This document shows, piece after piece, positions 6,331 through 50,069 of a DNA stretch of 64,000 nucleotides; position 1 is the stretch's first letter; the number at the start of each line of letters is the position of its first letter. The notes beneath the pieces are model-generated. The model searched no databases. It had not been told where the DNA came from and saw only the letters and a program-made list of their open reading frames with translations. The DNA comes from Escherichia coli (GTDB lineage: Bacteria > Pseudomonadota > Gammaproteobacteria > Enterobacterales > Enterobacteriaceae): NCBI RefSeq assembly GCF_044324785.1, contig NZ_CP172127.1; one strand, written 5' to 3'. Both the position numbers and the translations under genes were made by a program.

Positions 6331-8979
6331 TCAGAACTTATATTTCAGGCCCACCATCACTGCGGTGTCATTGTAGCCATTATCACCCAGCTGCACGCCC
6401 ACATTACCCCAGACGCTGGCCGCCGGATTCAGATTGCCATTTACGCCAAGTTTAATTTCCCCCAGATTACGCGCCCCGTCTTGTTCAACTTTCACACCGT
6501 TCATTGAGACAGCAAAATCTTTACTGTTATGGATCCAGTTCATTTCAACAAAAGGTTCAAAGTCGTCACCGTGCGGACCGCTGTTTTTCTCCTGAGTACG
6601 AATAAAGGTGCGGAAGCCGAGTCGGGTCTGGATGTTGTTATTTGCGTCACTCTCAATACGTGAGCCATTGGCTTCCGTGTGCGCATTATGATCGACGCCC
6701 ATCCAGATAGCCTGTGCCTGTGGCTGGAAGATCCACGTATATTTCGCCGCTTCCAGACCAAAGGATTTATTCAGGGCAAAACCGTAACCCGCTTCCAGCG
6801 AGACGGTTGCACCTTTCGCGCTATAGGATTCATAGGCTAATTCATCTCCTTTCACCGAGTTTTTAAACCAGCTATATTGCGCCCAGGCGTCAATGTATGC
6901 GCCTTTTTTACTGATGTCATCGGCAAACCAGGTGGCATACAGCCCTGCGCTATAGCCTCTGACACTCCCTTTCGAACGATAATCCGACAAGCTGGAATGA
7001 GTTGAGTTGTAGTCGCGGGCATAACCAGCCATCACTCCCAAACGCCAACTGTCACTGTCGGTAAAACCACCGGTTAACAGATCCGCCCCTAACTGCGAGA
7101 CGTAGCGATGCGAGGTCGTTCTCAACTGTCCGTTGCTGTCACGCCAGGCATTATGCCCGCCAATTTGACGTAGCCAAAGTCGGCTTGAACGCTCCTGTTC
7201 AGTTACAGGATCGATGTAGCGCGTTTCACCTGCACGATCGTTCAGACGCATAACAAAAAGAGTGTTAGCGGCTGCCAGGTTGGCGACGTAACTTCCAGCT
7301 TCGGGGCGCAGAACGGGGGTAGGCGCAACAGTAGGCGCTGAACTTCCTCCGGAGTTTGTTTCACCGCCGCTCGTTGCCTGGAAGTTAGTCAGATACCAGT
7401 TTTTATTGGTCGCTTCGGTATTACCTCGGGTTAATGAATATTCGTAGGCACCGGCGAAAATCCTCGAATCCTTAATAAATTCCCCATTTGATTCCCCCTC
7501 AACGCTGATAATCTCTATCCCATTTAACGTGTAAGCCCCGCTGCCCCCAGCATTGGTAACTTTTACTCGGGTTGTTCCGGAGGTATTTCCATTAATAACA
7601 ACTTTATCAGTAGCTGAATTATCATCACCCAATTCAGTTCTGAGATGCAATACGCCATTATTACCAACGTAATTTTCAGTTATTGTTAACCTTGTTGGTT
7701 CGAAATCCTTTCCATCTGCCCGGGAAATATAGACCGTACTATTGTCAACCGTGAGCTTGCTCACCGTTGAGTCAGTTTTAATATCCCAGGTACTATTATC
7801 TGAAAGCGACAGATAGGTATGAGTGCTATCATCTGTTGAAAGATTGGCTGAACCCGTTATTTTTGAATTAGATGCATCGATGGCCAAATGACCTTTAATA
7901 TTATTAATAAAAACATCTGCAGCCGATGATACCTCACTATCCGTAATGGTCACGTTACTCGTCTCATTTTTATTGTATAGGATTTCATTTGCTGACCGTA
8001 GTGAGCTACCAGATAAAATATCTACCGTTGCTTCCTGACCATTTATGGAAGACTCCAGCACAACTCCAGCCCCCTGATGCGCGACTGCAAATGTATTTTT
8101 CAGCGTCACCGTGCCGCCATTATAAATTTTAGCAATCGCGGCGTCAGGACCCGTTGTATAAATTTCTCCCTGGTTAAATGAAACTGTCCCCTGGCGAGCA
8201 GCGATGGCATGAGCATTGTCCCCATGCGTGGTAATATCAACATCGGTTAATGTAACGCTGGCATTGGTATAATCAAGCTTGCTACCAGCCTTGACGACAG
8301 TGCCATTAGCGTAAGCGGCATAACTTTCTGTTCCGTGGGTTGTTATCTCCCCTTTTGCCATATCCAGTTTTGCTTTGGCGTTATTTTCATTACTTCCTGT
8401 ATCGGCAGTACTTTCTTCATCAAGAGAAGATACACACGCACGCGCGCTTCCGGGAGATGCACAAGCAAGAACGCCGACTGCGTGATTACCCGCAGTAACA
8501 ATAAAAGTATTACCTTCGTCAGATAAATGGGGGTTAACCGAACCGTCAGTGTTGACTCTTATTATGGTATCAGTATTCAGGTTTCCATTCGTTTGACTTA
8601 GCAAACCAATTGAGTAATCCCCCGTTGTGACAATCGTATTATTACCCTGCAAAATAACTGCACCGCCATATTCACTTACGACTGCGCTAGCTGTATATAC
8701 TGTGCTTAGAGGACTATTGCCAGAAGGATATAAACCACCCGTTGTTACAATGACGCCTTTGTTAATGGTTAAATTGCTACCCTCTCCTGCAACAGATACC
8801 CCGTAACTTCCATTACCCGTTGTTATAACTAGCGCATTATCAATATCTTTTACTTCTCCATCTTTTATTGCCACAGCATGTTTATATTCATCGTGCTGAA
8901 TAAACTGTTCAGCATATGCATTACCCACCGCCAAAGCAATAAGTCCTAAACTAAACCCGGGGAGTTTTTTCAGTTTCAT
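6331..8979 (-). CDS. ycgH: Autotransporter (type Va) adhesin-like protein, intact 882 aa (ycgH)
   Basis: Signal peptide MKLKKLPGFSLGLIALAVGNAYA, long G/T/S/N-rich passenger, C-terminal barrel ending ...VMVGLKYKF; position between ymgD and ymgF. Confidence 0.85.
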   Translation of the reverse strand: MKLKKLPGFSLGLIALAVGNAYAEQFIQHDEYKHAVAIKDGEVKDIDNALVITTGNGSYGVSVAGEGSNLTINKGVIVTTGGLYPSGNSPLSTVYTASAVVSEYGGAVILQGNNTIVTTGDYSIGLLSQTNGNLNTDTIIRVNTDGSVNPHLSDEGNTFIVTAGNHAVGVLACASPGSARACVSSLDEESTADTGSNENNAKAKLDMAKGEITTHGTESYAAYANGTVVKAGSKLDYTNASVTLTDVDITTHGDNAHAIAARQGTVSFNQGEIYTTGPDAAIAKIYNGGTVTLKNTFAVAHQGAGVVLESSINGQEATVDILSGSSLRSANEILYNKNETSNVTITDSEVSSAADVFINNIKGHLAIDASNSKITGSANLSTDDSTHTYLSLSDNSTWDIKTDSTVSKLTVDNSTVYISRADGKDFEPTRLTITENYVGNNGVLHLRTELGDDNSATDKVVINGNTSGTTRVKVTNAGGSGAYTLNGIEIISVEGESNGEFIKDSRIFAGAYEYSLTRGNTEATNKNWYLTNFQATSGGETNSGGSSAPTVAPTPVLRPEAGSYVANLAAANTLFVMRLNDRAGETRYIDPVTEQERSSRLWLRQIGGHNAWRDSNGQLRTTSHRYVSQLGADLLTGGFTDSDSWRLGVMAGYARDYNSTHSSLSDYRSKGSVRGYSAGLYATWFADDISKKGAYIDAWAQYSWFKNSVKGDELAYESYSAKGATVSLEAGYGFALNKSFGLEAAKYTWIFQPQAQAIWMGVDHNAHTEANGSRIESDANNNIQTRLGFRTFIRTQEKNSGPHGDDFEPFVEMNWIHNSKDFAVSMNGVKVEQDGARNLGEIKLGVNGNLNPAASVWGNVGVQLGDNGYNDTAVMVGLKYKF

Positions 8980-17008: not shown

Positions 17009-18259
17009 TTACATGTTCTTGATGATCGCATCACCAAACTCGCTGCATTTCAGCAGCTTAGCACCTTCCATCAGACGTTCGAAGTCATAGGTTACGGTCT
17101 TCGCATTGATTGCGCCTTCCATACCTTTAACAATCAGGTCTGCAGCTTCAGTCCAGCCCATATGGCGTAACATCATCTCAGCGGAGAGAATAATAGAGCC
17201 TGGGTTTACTTTGTCCTGACCGGCATATTTCGGCGCAGTACCGTGGGTGGCTTCAAACAGGGCGCATTCGTCACCGATGTTTGCGCCAGGGGCGATACCG
17301 ATACCGCCAACCTGCGCTGCCAGGGCGTCAGAAATGTAGTCACCGTTCAGGTTCATACAGGCGATAACATCATATTCAGCCGGACGCAGCAGGATCTGTT
17401 GCAGGAATGCATCAGCAATCACGTCTTTAATGACGATCTCTTTGCCGGTGTTCGGGTTTTTAACTTTCAGCCACGGGCCGCCGTCGATCAGTTCACCGCC
17501 AAACTCTTCACGCGCCAGCTGGTAGCCCCAGTCTTTAAACGCGCCTTCGGTGAACTTCATGATGTTGCCTTTGTGCACCAGGGTCACAGAGTCACGATCG
17601 TTAGCAATTGCGTATTCGATCGCTGCACGAACCAGACGTTTGGTGCCTTCTTCCGAACACGGCTTAATACCGATACCGCAATGTTCCGGGAAGCGAATTT
17701 TCTTCACGCCCATCTCTTCACGCAGGAATTTAATCACTTTCTCGGCGTCGGCAGAGTCAGCTTTCCATTCGATACCCGCATAAATGTCTTCCGAGTTTTC
17801 ACGGAAGATAACCATATCGGTCAGTTCAGGGTGTTTAACCGGGCTTGGAGTGCCCTGATAGTAACGTACCGGACGCAGGCAGATGTAGAGATCCAGTTCC
17901 TGACGCAGGGCAACGTTCAGAGAGCGAATACCGCCACCTACTGGAGTGGTCAGCGGACCTTTAATGGCAACGCGATATTCACGAATCAGATCAAGGGTTT
18001 CAGCAGGCAGCCAGACATCCTGACCATAAACCTGTGTGGATTTTTCACCGGTGTAAATTTCCATCCAGGAGATTTTACGCTCGCCTTTATAGGCTTTCTC
18101 GACTGCAGCGTCGACCACTTTCAGCATGGCTGGGGTTACATCTACACCGATTCCATCACCTTCAATGTAAGGGATAATCGGATTTTCAGGAACGTTGAGT
18201 TTGCCGTTTTGCAGGGTGATCTTCTTGCCTTGTGCCGGAACAACTACTTTACTTTCCAT
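17009..18259 (-). CDS. icd: Isocitrate dehydrogenase (NADP)
   Basis: 416 aa, [38 protein letters not shown]... Confidence 0.98.
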
Positions 18260-18430
18260 TCACCTCTCCTTCGAGCGCTACTGGTTTGCTCGTCTGCCAC
18301 CACGTTGCATATGCGTTTGCGTCCTGCGATACGGATGCTTTAGAGCAATTTTTTGTTAATGATTTGTAATTGGCTTGTCAATACTACCCTATTGTTTGCC
18401 GTCATGAAAGATGCGCGTTATTAGGCTATA

Positions 18431-19084
18431 ATGCGGCAATTCATAATCTCTGAAAATACCATGCAAAAAACTTCTTTTAGAAATCACCAGGTTAAGCGAT
18501 TCAGCTCGCAACGTTCTACCAGGCGTAAACCTGAAAACCAGCCCACGCGTGTGATCCTGTTCAATAAACCCTACGATGTTCTTCCGCAGTTCACCGATGA
18601 AGCCGGACGCAAAACATTAAAAGAATTCATCCCGGTTCAGGGCGTTTATGCGGCAGGTCGTCTTGACCGCGATAGCGAAGGGTTACTGGTGCTGACCAAT
18701 AACGGCGCGTTGCAGGCGCGTTTAACCCAGCCGGGTAAACGCACCGGGAAAATCTATTATGTGCAGGTGGAAGGCATTCCCACACAAGACGCACTTGAGG
18801 CCTTGCGCAATGGCGTGACCTTAAATGATGGCCCCACCTTGCCCGCAGGCGTGGACCTGGTTGAAGAGCCGGAGTGGTTATGGCCGCGTAATCCGCCGAT
18901 TCGTGAACGTAAAAGTATTCCCACCAGCTGGCTGAAGATTACTTTATATGAAGGACGTAATCGCCAGGTGCGCCGCATGACCGCCCATGTTGGTTTCCCC
19001 ACGCTGCGACTGATTCGCTATGCGATGGGTGATTACTCTTTGGATAATCTTGCCAACGGCGAATGGCGAGAAGCGACAGATTAA
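18431..19084 (+). CDS. rluE: 23S rRNA pseudouridine(2457) synthase RluE
   Basis: 217 aa; RsuA/RluE family; an ATG at 18461 is an alternative start. Confidence 0.9.
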
Positions 19085-22935: not shown

Positions 22936-23607
22936 ATGCGCGTACTGGTTGTTGAAGACAATGCGTTGTTACGTCACCATCTTAAAGTTCAGATTCAGGA
23001 TGCTGGTCATCAGGTCGATGACGCAGAAGATGCCAAAGAAGCCGATTATTATCTCAATGAACATTTACCGGATATTGCGATTGTCGATCTCGGATTGCCT
23101 GACGAGGACGGTCTGTCACTGATTCGCCGCTGGCGTAGCAATGATGTTTCACTGCCGATTCTGGTATTAACCGCCCGTGAAAGCTGGCAGGACAAAGTCG
23201 AAGTATTAAGTGCCGGTGCTGATGATTACGTGACTAAACCGTTTCATATTGAAGAGGTGATGGCGCGAATGCAGGCATTAATGCGGCGTAATAGCGGTCT
23301 GGCTTCACAGGTCATTTCGCTACCCCCGTTTCAGGTTGATCTCTCTCGCCGTGAATTATCTATTAATGACGAAGTGATCAAACTGACCGCGTTCGAATAC
23401 ACCATTATAGAAACGTTGATACGCAATAATGGCAAAGTGGTCAGCAAAGATTCGTTAATGCTACAACTCTATCCGGATGCGGAGCTGCGGGAAAGCCATA
23501 CCATTGATGTACTGATGGGACGTCTGCGCAAAAAAATTCAGGCACAATATCCGCAAGAAGTGATTACCACCGTTCGCGGCCAGGGCTATCTGTTCGAATT
23601 GCGCTGA
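22936..23607 (+). CDS. phoP: Response regulator PhoP
   Basis: 223 aa, [19 protein letters not shown]... Confidence 0.98.
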
Positions 23608-25067
23608 TGAAAAAATTACTGCGTCTTTTTTTCCCGCTCTCGCTGCGGGTACGTTTTCTGTTGGCAACGGCAGCGGTAGTACTGGTGCTTTCGCTTGCCT
23701 ACGGAATGGTCGCGCTGATCGGTTATAGCGTCAGTTTCGATAAAACTACGTTTCGGCTGTTACGTGGCGAGAGCAATCTGTTCTATACCCTTGCGAAGTG
23801 GGAAAACAATAAGTTGCATGTCGAGTTACCCGAAAATATCGACAAGCAAAGCCCCACCATGACGCTAATTTATGATGAGAACGGGCAGCTATTATGGGCG
23901 CAACGTGACGTGCCCTGGCTGATGAAGATGATCCAGCCTGACTGGCTGAAATCGAATGGTTTTCATGAAATTGAAGCGGATGTTAACGATACCAGCCTCT
24001 TGCTGAGTGGAGATCATTCGATACAGCAACAGTTGCAGGAAGTGCGGGAAGATGATGACGACGCGGAGATGACCCACTCGGTGGCGGTAAATGTCTACCC
24101 GGCAACATCGCGGATGCCAAAGTTAACCATTGTGGTGGTGGATACCATTCCGGTGGAGCTAAAAAGTTCCTATATGGTCTGGAGCTGGTTTATCTATGTG
24201 CTCTCAGCCAATCTGCTGTTAGTGATCCCGCTGCTGTGGGTCGCCGCCTGGTGGAGTTTACGCCCCATCGAAGCCCTGGCAAAAGAAGTCCGCGAACTGG
24301 AAGAACATAACCGCGAATTGCTCAATCCAGCCACAACGCGAGAACTGACCAGTCTGGTACGAAACCTGAACCGATTGTTAAAAAGTGAACGCGAACGTTA
24401 CGACAAATATCGTACAACGCTCACCGACCTGACCCATAGTCTGAAAACGCCACTGGCGGTGCTGCAAAGTACGCTGCGTTCTCTGCGTAGTGAGAAGATG
24501 AGCGTCAGTGATGCTGAGCCGGTAATGCTGGAGCAAATCAGTCGCATTTCACAGCAAATTGGCTACTACCTGCATCGTGCCAGTATGCGCGGCGGGACAT
24601 TGCTTAGCCGCGAGCTGCATCCGGTCGCCCCACTGCTGGACAATCTCACCTCGGCGCTGAACAAAGTGTATCAACGCAAAGGGGTCAATATCTCTCTCGA
24701 TATTTCGCCAGAGATCAGCTTTGTCGGTGAGCAGAACGATTTTGTCGAGGTGATGGGCAACGTGCTGGATAATGCCTGTAAATATTGCCTCGAGTTTGTC
24801 GAAATATCTGCAAGGCAAACAGACGAGCATCTCTATATTGTGGTCGAGGATGATGGCCCCGGTATTCCATTAAGCAAGCGAGAGGTCATTTTCGACCGTG
24901 GTCAACGGGTTGATACTTTACGCCCTGGGCAAGGTGTAGGGCTGGCGGTAGCCCGCGAAATCACCGAGCAATATGAGGGTAAAATCGTCGCCGGAGAGAG
25001 CATGCTGGGCGGTGCGCGGATGGAGGTGATTTTTGGTCGCCAGCATTCTGCGCCGAAAGATGAATAA
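23607..25067 (+). CDS. phoQ: Sensor histidine kinase PhoQ
   Basis: 486 aa; start overlaps phoP stop (TGATG). Confidence 0.98.
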
Positions 25068-27539: not shown

Positions 27540-27788
27540 GTAGTCACCCTCACTTTTTGTGACAACATTATTAAGAAGCAAGAAAAGACAAATATTGCGT
27601 CAGGTCACTTTTACCCCTGCAAGCGGGAATATTTATCAGCATTACCTTAATGAATATAAAGCTAAGCCAGTAATTCACAACAAAGATTGGCGATTCAAGC
27701 GGTTTGCCGTAGAATTACCGCCCTCATTAAGAGTCACCAAGGTGGTTAACCACAAACCCCGCATCGGTAAGCCATCCGTTGCGTTTAC

Positions 27789-28925
27789 ATGGGACAGAGT
27801 AAAAAATTGAATAAACAACCGAGTTCGCTTTCACCGCTGGTGCAATTGGCGGGAATTCGCAAATGCTTTGATGGTAAAGAGGTCATTCCCCAGCTGGATC
27901 TGACTATCAACAATGGCGAGTTCCTCACGCTGCTTGGCCCTTCTGGCTGCGGTAAAACAACCGTTCTTCGCCTGATTGCAGGTCTGGAAACTGTTGATTC
28001 CGGACGCATCATGCTGGATAACGAGGACATCACCCACGTTCCGGCGGAAAACCGCTATGTGAACACTGTTTTCCAAAGCTACGCACTTTTCCCCCACATG
28101 ACCGTGTTCGAAAATGTGGCCTTTGGGTTACGCATGCAAAAAACCCCCGCTGCTGAAATTACGCCCCGCGTGATGGAAGCCCTGCGGATGGTGCAGCTGG
28201 AAACCTTCGCTCAACGTAAACCGCATCAGCTTTCTGGTGGTCAACAGCAACGCGTCGCCATTGCTCGCGCGGTGGTTAACAAGCCTCGTCTGTTGTTGCT
28301 GGATGAGTCGCTCTCAGCGCTGGATTACAAACTGCGCAAACAGATGCAGAACGAGCTGAAAGCGCTACAGCGTAAGCTTGGCATTACATTCGTCTTCGTG
28401 ACTCACGACCAGGAAGAAGCACTCACCATGTCGGACAGGATTGTGGTGATGCGCGATGGTCGCATTGAGCAAGACGGCACGCCGCGTGAAATCTACGAAG
28501 AGCCGAAAAACCTGTTTGTTGCCGGGTTTATCGGTGAAATCAATATGTTTAATGCCACGGTCATCGAACGTCTCGACGAGCAGCGCGTACGCGCCAACGT
28601 TGAAGGCCGCGAGTGTAATATCTACGTTAACTTCGGCGTTGAACCGGGGCAAAAACTGCATGTTCTGCTGCGCCCGGAAGACTTACGTGTTGAAGAGATT
28701 AACGACGACAACCACGCTGAAGGGCTGATTGGTTACGTTCGCGAGCGTAACTACAAAGGCATGACGCTGGAGTCGGTTGTTGAACTGGAAAATGGCAAGA
28801 TGGTGATGGTCAGCGAATTCTTCAATGAAGACGACCCTGACTTTGACCACTCTCTCGACCAAAAAATGGCCATTAATTGGGTAGAAAGCTGGGAGGTCGT
28901 ACTGGCTGATGAAGAACACAAGTAA
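27789..28925 (+). CDS. potA: Spermidine/putrescine ABC transporter ATPase PotA
   Basis: 378 aa; Walker [10 protein letters not shown], signature LSGGQQQR. Confidence 0.97.
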
Positions 28926-28938
28926 GTTCCAGAATGTA

Positions 28939-29766
28939 GTGATTGTCACTATTGTCGGTTGGCTTGTGTTGTTTGTCTTTCTGCCCAACCTGATGATCAT
29001 TGGCACCAGCTTTTTGACCCGCGACGACGCCAGTTTCGTCAAAATGGTCTTTACGCTGGATAACTACACGCGTCTGCTCGATCCGCTCTATTTTGAAGTG
29101 CTATTGCACTCGCTGAATATGGCGCTGATCGCCACCCTCGCCTGCCTGGTGCTGGGCTATCCTTTTGCCTGGTTTCTGGCGAAGCTGCCACACAAGGTGC
29201 GTCCGCTGCTGCTGTTTCTGCTGATTGTTCCGTTCTGGACCAACTCATTGATTCGTATCTACGGGCTGAAAATTTTCCTCAGCACCAAAGGCTATCTCAA
29301 CGAGTTTTTGCTCTGGCTGGGCGTTATCGATACACCAATTCGCATCATGTTCACACCCAGTGCGGTGATTATCGGTCTGGTTTACATTCTGCTGCCGTTT
29401 ATGGTGATGCCGCTGTACTCGAGTATCGAAAAACTGGATAAGCCGTTGCTGGAGGCGGCGCGCGATCTCGGTGCCAGCAAGTTGCAGACCTTTATCCGCA
29501 TCATTATCCCACTGACGATGCCGGGAATTATTGCCGGATGTCTGCTGGTGATGCTGCCAGCGATGGGCCTGTTCTATGTGTCCGACCTGATGGGCGGTGC
29601 GAAAAACCTGCTGATCGGTAACGTCATCAAAGTACAGTTCCTCAATATTCGTGACTGGCCGTTTGGTGCAGCCACCAGCATTACGCTGACTATCGTAATG
29701 GGCCTGATGTTGCTGGTTTACTGGCGCGCTTCTCGTTTGCTGAATAAGAAGGTGGAACTCGAATGA
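28939..29766 (+). CDS. potB: Spermidine/putrescine ABC transporter permease PotB
   Basis: Track ORF from 28909 overlaps the potA 3' end; GTG at 28939 gives ~275 aa; start uncertain. Confidence 0.9.
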   Translation: MIVTIVGWLVLFVFLPNLMIIGTSFLTRDDASFVKMVFTLDNYTRLLDPLYFEVLLHSLNMALIATLACLVLGYPFAWFLAKLPHKVRPLLLFLLIVPFWTNSLIRIYGLKIFLSTKGYLNEFLLWLGVIDTPIRIMFTPSAVIIGLVYILLPFMVMPLYSSIEKLDKPLLEAARDLGASKLQTFIRIIIPLTMPGIIAGCLLVMLPAMGLFYVSDLMGGAKNLLIGNVIKVQFLNIRDWPFGAATSITLTIVMGLMLLVYWRASRLLNKKVELE

Positions 29767-30557
29767 TCGGTCGACTGCTTCGCGGCGGTTTTATGACCGC
29801 TATCTACGCGTACCTGTATATCCCAATCATTATTTTGATTGTGAACTCCTTTAACAGCTCGCGCTTTGGCATCAACTGGCAGGGTTTTACCACTAAATGG
29901 TATAGCCTGCTGATGAACAACGACAGTCTGTTGCAGGCAGCTCAGCATTCATTGACGATGGCGGTGTTTTCAGCGACGTTTGCTACGCTTATCGGTTCAC
30001 TGACTGCAGTTGCGCTGTACCGTTATCGCTTTCGCGGTAAGCCGTTCGTTAGCGGAATGCTGTTTGTGGTGATGATGTCGCCAGATATTGTGATGGCGAT
30101 TTCTCTGCTGGTGCTGTTTATGCTGCTGGGTATTCAGCTTGGCTTCTGGTCGCTGCTGTTCTCGCATATCACCTTCTGCCTGCCATTTGTGGTGGTGACG
30201 GTGTACTCGCGCCTGAAAGGTTTTGACGTGCGAATGCTGGAAGCGGCGAAAGATCTCGGTGCCAGCGAATTTACCATTCTGCGAAAAATCATTCTGCCAC
30301 TGGCAATGCCAGCGGTGGCGGCGGGCTGGGTGTTAAGCTTTACCCTGTCGATGGACGATGTGGTGGTTTCTTCGTTCGTCACCGGACCAAGTTATGAAAT
30401 TCTGCCGTTAAAAATTTATTCGATGGTTAAAGTCGGCGTATCGCCGGAAGTTAACGCGCTGGCAACCATATTACTGGTGCTGTCGCTGGTGATGGTAATT
30501 GCCAGCCAGCTTATTGCTCGTGATAAAACGAAAGGTAACACAGGGGACGTTAAATGA
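29763..30557 (+). CDS. potC: Spermidine/putrescine ABC transporter permease PotC
   Basis: 264 aa; 4-nt overlap with potB. Confidence 0.96.
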   Translation: MIGRLLRGGFMTAIYAYLYIPIIILIVNSFNSSRFGINWQGFTTKWYSLLMNNDSLLQAAQHSLTMAVFSATFATLIGSLTAVALYRYRFRGKPFVSGMLFVVMMSPDIVMAISLLVLFMLLGIQLGFWSLLFSHITFCLPFVVVTVYSRLKGFDVRMLEAAKDLGASEFTILRKIILPLAMPAVAAGWVLSFTLSMDDVVVSSFVTGPSYEILPLKIYSMVKVGVSPEVNALATILLVLSLVMVIASQLIARDKTKGNTGDVK

Positions 30558-31657: not shown

Positions 31658-32119
31658 ATGAGTCAGGACAGTAGAGTTTTCTTTCGTATATTCCTCGGTA
31701 TCGGTCTGGTACTGATCCTCATTTCTGTTGTTGTCTTTTATAACCAGTTCACCTATAGCAAAGACGCGATTCATACTGAAGGCGTCATTGTTGATACCGT
31801 CTGGCACTCCAGTCATTCTCATCGCACGGGTAAAAATGGTTCGTGGTATCCCGTCGTTGCCTTTCGACCGACGCCTGATTACACGCTAATTTTCAATTCG
31901 AGTATCGGCAGCGATTTTTATGAAGACAGCGAAGGCGATAAAGTTAATGTTTATTATTCTCCAGGACATCCTGAAAAGGCTGAGATAAATAACCCGTGGG
32001 TTAATTTTTTTAAATGGGGGTTTATCGGCGTTATGGGCGTTATTTTTATCTCCGTCGGTTTATTAATCAGTATGCCCTCCTCTAAAAAGACACGCAGGAA
32101 ACGGAAGTCCCGCCCATGA
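31658..32119 (+). CDS. ymfA: Inner membrane protein YmfA, ~153 aa
   Basis: Internal Met [28 protein letters not shown]...; two TM segments. Confidence 0.8.
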
Positions 32120-32901
32120 AAAAAATCATAATATTGCTCAGTTTACTGATACTCCTGCCTCTGACGGCAACCAGTAATCCATTGATTCCAATAATGAAGA
32201 CTCTTTTTACAGATGTTACAGGTACTGTACCGGATGCTGAAGAGATCGCGCATAAAGCCGAGCTTTTTCGCCAACAAACCGGGATTGCGCCGTTTATCGT
32301 GGTTGTACCTGGCGTTAATGAAGCAAACTTCAGGCAAAATGGCAAAGCGATGCTGGCGCATGCGTCATCTTCATTGAGTGATGTAAAAGGCAGCGTCCTG
32401 TTACTTTTTACCACCCGCGAGCCACGGTTAATTATGATAACCAACGGCCAGGTTGAAAGCGGTCTGGACGATAAACATCTCGGCCTTCTGGTAGAAAATC
32501 ACACTCAGGCTTATTTACATGCGGACCTCTGGTATCAGGGAATCAATAATGCATTGGCTGTTTTACAAGCACAGATATTAAAACAACCGACGCCGCCACT
32601 GACATATTATCCGCATCCCGGACAACAGCAGGAGAATGATCCTCCCGGCAGTACCACGACATTAGGTCTTTTTGCCTGGGCAGTTGCATTCATCGTCTTT
32701 ACTGCATTTTTTTACTACACGACGCGCCTTAATTATGCATTAAAGTTTGCAGTGGCGATGACTATTGCCAATATGGGTTATCAGGCTTTATGTTTGTACA
32801 TCGATAATAGCTTTGCGATTACCAGAATATCGCCGCTCTGGGCAGGGCTGATTGGTGTCTGTACGTTTATTGCCGCGTTGTTATTGACGAGTAAACGGTA
32901 A
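32116..32901 (+). CDS. ycfZ: Inner membrane protein YcfZ, 261 aa
   Basis: 261 aa; signal/TM at N-terminus, C-terminal TM helices; ATGA overlap with ymfA. Confidence 0.8.

Positions 32902-34815: not shown

Positions 34816-38073
<3,258 letters not shown>

Positions 38074-50049: not shown

Positions 50050-50069
<20 letters not shown>

Follow-up and report, generated by a model that had tools for sequence, protein, structure and literature searches.

Overlapping stop and start codons in a 64 kb segment of the Escherichia coli chromosome are routine intra-operon junctions, with phoP/phoQ as a candidate for obligatory termination-reinitiation

Overlapping stop and start codons in the window

In the 64,000 nt stretch of E. 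coli DNA analysed here (the window), nine pairs of adjacent genes on the same strand have overlapping stop and start codons (Table 1), and these overlaps are routine intra-operon junctions which are already catalogued for K-12 and are not novel. It is very likely that they function as ordinary junctions with termination-reinitiation at the short overlaps, the reliance on this process differing from junction to junction, and coupling itself is inferred. phoP/phoQ is the best candidate in the window for obligatory termination-reinitiation. Operon membership of the pairs other than phoPQ is presumed from what is known of K-12.

The nine overlaps listed in the original prediction were all found at the sizes given there, by reading of the sequence, in the PGAP gene models and in the curated K-12 annotation, which has the same nine distances, and the TGATG motif described for phoP/phoQ was confirmed, with the TGA of phoP and the ATG of phoQ having one base in common. 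The minus-strand pairs had been named in plus-strand order, with the direction of translation thus reversed, which is a cosmetic matter that leaves the sizes unaffected. The potA/potB pair was missing from that list, and overlaps by 17 nt when the PGAP start of potB is used.

Table 1. Stop/start junctions with overlapping codons in the window, in order of position
Junction	Position	Strand	Description
phoP stop/phoQ start	23605..23609	+	TGATG, 1-nt overlap at 23607; phoP 22936-23607, phoQ 23607-25067; no Shine-Dalgarno sequence before phoQ
potA stop/potB start	28909..28925	+	17-nt overlap (ATGAAGAACACAAGTAA), PGAP start
potB stop/potC start	29763..29766	+	ATGA, 4-nt overlap; AAGGTGG Shine-Dalgarno sequence 7 nt upstream
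potC stop/potD start	30554..30557	+	ATGA, 4-nt overlap; conserved CAGGGGA Shine-Dalgarno sequence
ymfA stop/ycfZ start	32116..32119	+	ATGA, 4-nt overlap
lolD stop/lolE start	36058..36062	-	TAATG, 1-nt overlap at base 36060
lolC stop/lolD start	36754..36761	-	ATGAATAA, 8-nt overlap
lpoB stop/thiK start (GTG)	50050..50069	-	20-nt overlap
tmk stop/holB start	57563..57566	-	ATGA, 4-nt overlap; AGGAG Shine-Dalgarno sequence
mltG (yceG) stop/tmk start	58194..58204	-	11-nt overlap

The window is the segment of the E. coli chromosome from minCDE to fabD, including phoPQ, potABCD, lolCDE and tmk-holB, and complete E. coli genomes match it end to end with 98.6–99.3% identity (megablast). The gene order is ycgL-minCDE-ymg/bluFR-icd-rluE-nudJ-mnmA-hflD-purB-phoPQ-roxA-pepT-potABCD-ymfA-ycfZ-cobB-nagK-lolEDC-ycfT-mfd ... 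ptsG-ycfH-holB-tmk-mltG-pabC-fabFGD, in an orientation inverted compared to K-12 MG1655 (1.148–1.229 Mb), with 97.3–98.7% identity to K-12 and with the e14 prophage absent. Gene models of E. coli strain N3 (98.7% identical), as annotated by PGAP, were carried over to the window, where 45/45 were intact, and were compared with the curated annotation of K-12 MG1655, while the stop/start distance was computed for every same-strand junction. A scan of the window against Rfam gave no matches.

The commonest distances between E. coli genes are −4, followed by −1 and then −8, and 707 of 2987 unidirectional gene pairs (24%) are found at −8 to +6 nt (Huber et al. 2023, PMC10666635). An enrichment of short junctions in the window was rejected, as 12 of its 51 same-strand adjacent pairs fall in this range compared to the 24% genome-wide (binomial p = 1.0). 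In all prokaryotes, the −4, −1 and −8 classes depart strongly from chance, and long overlaps occur mainly in the −8/−11/−14/−17/−20 phase (PMC10666635), which is the phase of all three long overlaps of the window (−11, −17 and −20). Supplementary file 3 of the same study (PMC10666635) already tabulates each listed K-12 pair at the identical distance, and its manual curation of same-complex partners gives 'yes' for lolC/D, lolD/E, potB/C, potC/D and ymfA/ycfZ and 'not' for phoP/phoQ and lpoB/thiK, with mltG/tmk and tmk/holB being without assignment. The importance of the overlaps is small beyond quality control of the annotation, in which the chosen operon start codons come out sound.

Probable termination-reinitiation at short overlaps

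The overlaps had been described in the original prediction as the arrangement expected for translationally coupled genes. They do have the textbook arrangement for termination-reinitiation (PMC6728339, PMC10666635), but this does not constitute proof of coupling, since native E. coli pairs at −4 were coupled in four of five tests, with bioBF being uncoupled at the same distance (PMC6728339). Reinitiation drops steeply with distance, and −8 to +10 nt is treated as the predictive range (PMC10666635). Seven of the nine pairs are within −8 to approximately +6/+10 nt (−1, −4, −4, −4, −1, −8 and −4), with mltG/tmk (−11) and lpoB/thiK (−20), and also potA/potB (−17), located outside of it. All three exceed in length the class for which Huber et al. 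showed efficient reinitiation. For the shorter overlaps, both the motifs (ATGA, TGATG/TAATG and ATGNNTAA) and the organism are the same as those of the −4/−1/−8 pairs for which Huber et al. (2019, PMC6728339; 2023, PMC10666635) describe coupling through termination-reinitiation, although the pairs tested in 2019 were others (hyfHI, astDB, ydbH/ynbE, menDH and bioBF; PMC6728339), and the enrichment of subunits of the same complex reported by Huber et al. fits LolCDE and PotABCD. Our literature search found no coupling experiment on any pair of this window.

Translational coupling in the trp operon of E. coli was reportedly described by Oppenheim and Yanofsky in 1980 and by Aksoy et al. in 1984. 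At the trpB-trpA and trpE-trpD junctions the stop and start codons overlap in one mRNA, as in the pairs of the window, and the amount of downstream product follows the translation of the upstream gene; coupling was established there by genetics, whereas for the window it is predicted. At the short overlaps, the ribosome ending the upstream gene would sit on or beside the downstream start, where it may restart without leaving the mRNA, which would tie the output of the downstream gene to translation of the upstream gene. phoQ has no Shine-Dalgarno (SD) sequence and probably relies nearly completely on ribosomes that come from phoP, and a reinitiation below full efficiency would keep PhoQ below PhoP. 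The SD sequences of potC, lolE, holB and potB are located within the upstream gene, and these four genes probably use reinitiation together with some direct entry. Independent initiation was seen in vitro for potD, tmk, lolD and ycfZ, and for tmk also in vivo.

Start codons and published initiation data

The overlaps had also been taken as support for the choice of start codons. The chosen starts are equal to those of PGAP and curated K-12, and five of the nine have direct start-site support, but the overlap itself does not provide independent evidence, since it follows from the choice of start. In eight of ten downstream genes (the nine and potB), no start codon lies between the in-frame upstream stop and the chosen start, and no longer ORF is possible for phoQ, potB (PGAP start), potC, potD, ycfZ, lolE, tmk and thiK. 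Longer options are present in two genes only, these being lolD (TTG/ATG at −141/−138 and TTG at −96/−90) and holB (TTG at −21). Alternative starts located downstream lack an SD sequence and would remove conserved N-terminal residues, and for thiK, where the GTG precedes any other start codon of the ORF, the sole alternative is a TTG at +39, also without an SD sequence. In almost every species, the tblastn alignments extend to residue 1, which falls on the expected codon.

Ribosome profiling or N-terminal proteomics had been proposed as a check of the starts, and published data of this kind support those of tmk, lolD, potC, potD and ycfZ, give no support for phoQ, lolE, holB and thiK, and contradict none of the nine. 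In INRI-seq, initiation complexes are mapped on synthetic transcripts covering −30 to +153 of each K-12 gene, on which upstream translation is impossible, and this was positive at the annotated starts of all five supported genes, while in vivo retapamulin profiling (Ribo-RET) was positive at the starts of tmk and lolD. Peptides matching the longer ORFs had been named as the result that would overturn the chosen starts; lolD, which along with holB has a longer option, has at its annotated start an N-terminal peptide (14 residues, listed in a 2026 N-terminomics table), as well as the Ribo-RET and INRI-seq signals. Table S3 of the INRI-seq study does not list any other in-frame start for phoQ, potC, lolE, holB, thiK, potB, potD and lolD.

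There was no INRI-seq signal at phoQ, holB and thiK, though their transcripts were present (58–70 CPM, with phoQ at 60 and holB at 70), and the phoP and potD transcripts, of similar CPM, gave clear peaks. No INRI-seq signal was detected at lolE either, the transcript of which was scarce (8 CPM); such scarcity accounts for lolE only, because of the 58–70 CPM of the other three. The thiK start was without signal in both the INRI-seq and the Ribo-RET data. As INRI-seq overlooks 30% of annotated starts, and the five of nine detected do not differ from the 70% background (p = 0.47), the negative results at phoQ, holB, thiK and lolE are weak evidence, and their use as proof of coupling was rejected.

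A reproducible INRI-seq peak (24 CPM, 5/5 replicates) was observed at a GTG on the minus strand (58219–58221), 16 nt before the ATG of tmk. This GTG is in the frame of mltG, eight codons before the mltG stop, and the peak probably reflects an oddity of the truncated transcript in vitro.

The phoP/phoQ junction

A phoQ-centred scan of species-representative genomes gave 80 Enterobacteriaceae loci with 10-kb flanks, which contained potABCD in approximately 60 and the lolE + lolD end in approximately 20. The distance from phoP to phoQ in 79 Enterobacteriaceae species was −4 in 33, −1 in 30, 0 in 14 and +4 in one, with one probable artefact, and hence was −4, −1 or 0 in 77/79 species, with the motif alternating by genus between ATGA, TGATG/TAATG and TAAATG. 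The SD pairing energy before phoQ was 0 in the window, and the same value was obtained for 97% of the 78 Enterobacteriaceae species compared; phoP, purB, pepT, potB, potC and potD had an SD sequence of −4 kcal/mol or better in 96–100% of species, and phoQ was the only gene without any SD sequence among 34 downstream genes in the window. Scanning for promoters in phoPQ did not show a promoter-like site inside phoP, nor a promoter or credible terminator between the genes, and the terminator scan gave a single weak hairpin inside phoQ, at chance level.

The absence of an SD sequence in 97% of species, the junction at ≤0 nt in 77/79 and the silence of the isolated start region in vitro together suggest that phoQ may be translated by reinitiation only. 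Whether PhoQ synthesis in the Enterobacteriaceae is wholly dependent on ribosomes that have just completed PhoP is evenly balanced in our judgement. Direct entry at phoQ could still occur despite the lack of an SD sequence, as initiation in E. coli can take place at the correct sites when SD pairing is absent (PMC7043885). If PhoQ does depend on these ribosomes, the junction would set the regulator-to-kinase ratio, and PhoQ would automatically be subject to any regulation of phoP translation. phoQ resembles a clear natural example of SD-independent, reinitiation-only translation, which would bear on the PhoP:PhoQ ratio, and in most regulator/kinase pairs of E. coli the kinase is reported to be made in lower amounts than the regulator (PMC9725139).

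For OmpR-family regulators followed by a histidine kinase (COG0745→COG0642), the distances of 7491 gene pairs have a median of −3.4 nt, with quartiles at −6.1 and 10.6 (PMC10666635), and phoP/phoQ has the tight junction typical of this family. The conserved absence of an SD sequence before phoQ was measured within the Enterobacteriaceae only. Searching the literature for translational coupling of phoP and phoQ gave uses of the term for other genes (trpBA, eptA-lpxE) and no test of phoPQ. The window encodes the common E. coli form of PhoQ (100% identity), and a protein search directed at distant genera (Yersinia, Pseudomonas) gave, among the matches listed, only relatives of at least 81% identity, which added nothing on the junction.

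The protein database contains single-member ORFs in which PhoP and PhoQ are fused (638–708 aa), one of these from Shigella flexneri. A 1-nt insertion or deletion at the TGATG junction would join the phoP and phoQ frames, and the fused ORFs probably represent either errors in sequencing or rare mutants.

Conservation of the potABCD, lolCDE and other junctions

The original prediction treated the overlaps as one class, and this is only partly borne out, as phoP/phoQ, potB/potC, potA/potB and lolD/lolE are conserved, but potC/potD is not, and the −11 and −20 overlaps are out of range. The distance between potB and potC was −4 in 55/61 species, representing all 55 uninterrupted loci, with the AAGGTGG motif at a spacing of 7, while the other 6/61 species have insertions of 0.3–3.6 kb between the two genes. 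Any coupling of potB and potC would be broken in the latter genomes. In contrast, potC/potD was at −4 in only 26/57 species, with a spacing from −4 to +154 and an invariant CAGGGGA SD sequence, and its published cross-phylum median distance is +19 (PMC10666635). The variation of potC/potD serves as an internal control, since it was found in the same species set and indicates that drift of a junction is possible among species this far apart. The potD start has its own conserved SD sequence and initiates alone in vitro (INRI-seq).

The potB/potC junction (29750–29766) is also a site of insertion, with E. coli strain 4621 having a lambdoid prophage there. The crossover of this prophage is located 12 nt upstream of the potC ATG, and as a result PotB ends in VSELDD in place of VELE.

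The potA/potB distance was −17 in 61/63 Enterobacteriaceae species, with an ATG start and a GGGAGG SD sequence at a spacing of 9–10. In K-12, potB is annotated from a GTG at 28939 (275 aa), which lacks an SD sequence and leaves a 13-nt gap after the potA stop, whereas both PGAP and the PDB entries 8Y5F, 8Y5H and 8ZX1 have the ATG at 28909 (285 aa). INRI-seq gave zero signal at the K-12 start of potB, though the transcript was abundant (367 CPM). The conservation of the ATG and SD sequence in 61/63 species, the 285 aa of the PDB entries and the absence of INRI-seq signal at the GTG make the K-12 start doubtful, and it is probably annotated 30 nt too late, with the true product being 285 aa and overlapping potA by 17 nt. 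At potA, the first gene of the operon (start 27769–27791), no SD sequence was present in 82% of 44 species, and INRI-seq was zero at the annotated start, with a peak seen reproducibly at an out-of-frame ATT at +17 (57 CPM, 5/5 replicates).

The cross-species scan reached phoPQ, potABCD and lolD/lolE, and lolC/lolD, tmk/holB and mltG/tmk were assessed from published medians of COG pairs. The lolD/lolE distance was −1 in 18/19 species, across genera. The published median is −5.8 for LolC/E→LolD (first quartile −8, n = 1123), −4 for Tmk→HolB (n = 835 gene pairs) and −1 for MltG→Tmk (n = 352) (PMC10666635). The ymfA-ycfZ pair (31658–32901) was found in Escherichia loci only, among the 80 Enterobacteriaceae loci with flanks able to cover it. 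Where ymfA-ycfZ is absent in other genera, cobB, nagK and lolE are located closer to potD.

Alternative explanations for the overlaps

Part of the overlaps might be annotation artefacts, with the true start located further downstream, or upstream in the case of lolD and holB, and gene callers do favour starts at −4 and −1. The conflicting annotations of potB (the GTG of K-12 at +13 versus the ATG of PGAP at −17) show that such differences occur, and in the data sets examined no direct evidence was found for the starts of phoQ, lolE, holB and thiK. We nevertheless regard this explanation as very improbable, as eight of the ten starts are the first in their ORF, later starts come without an SD sequence and at the cost of conserved N-terminal residues, the tblastn alignments begin at residue 1 of the expected codon in nearly all species, INRI-seq Table S3 offers no other in-frame start for the eight genes named above, and the annotated start of lolD is backed by peptide, Ribo-RET and INRI-seq data. 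The overlaps could alternatively be correct as annotated and constitute a neutral by-product of compact genomes, in which stops and starts drift to the nearest out-of-frame stop, and ribosomes enter the downstream gene at its own SD sequence without meaningful coupling. The wide range of potC/potD spacings next to an invariant potD SD sequence would be expected from this, as would SD sequences of −4 to −11 kcal/mol at most downstream starts, the five of nine downstream start regions that initiate alone in vitro, and the uncoupled bioBF pair at −4. A neutral origin is however difficult to reconcile with a phoQ gene that has no SD sequence in 97% of species and yet keeps its junction at ≤0 in 77/79, with potB/potC, potA/potB and lolD/lolE being fixed across genera where potC/potD drifts, and with the sharp genome-wide peaks at −4/−1/−8 and the steep loss of reinitiation with distance (PMC10666635), and we consider it unlikely.

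Coupling may also come about by unmasking, where upstream ribosomes melt RNA structure over the downstream start and thus allow new ribosomes to enter, as described for other operons (PMC12548453; PMC6728339). Here there is little chance that it explains the junctions, since the 110 nt around the phoQ start folded no better than shuffled sequence (z = −0.05), the absence of an SD sequence gives a newly entering ribosome little to bind at phoQ, and the isolated phoQ start region was still silent in vitro with most of any upstream structure absent. Neutral origin, annotation artefact and unmasking are each possible at single junctions, and overall are less well supported than termination-reinitiation at the short overlaps.

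Other features of the window

The region from icd to rluE (17009–18431) does not contain e14 at icd in the window, whereas K-12 has e14 at this position; in strain N3 a phage integrase gene adjoins icd, and strain 4621 has two additional genes between icd and rluE. An autotransporter gene of 882 aa on the minus strand (6331–8979) is intact in the window, while its K-12 counterpart is the pseudogene ycgH. Between 17009 and 63600, the gene by gene identity to N3 ranged from 100% (rluE, nudJ, ndh, nagZ, lpoB, ycfL, hinT, acpP and fabG) down to approximately 97.3% (roxA, lolC, lolE and ycfZ), and this spread suggests that the segment may be a recombination mosaic.
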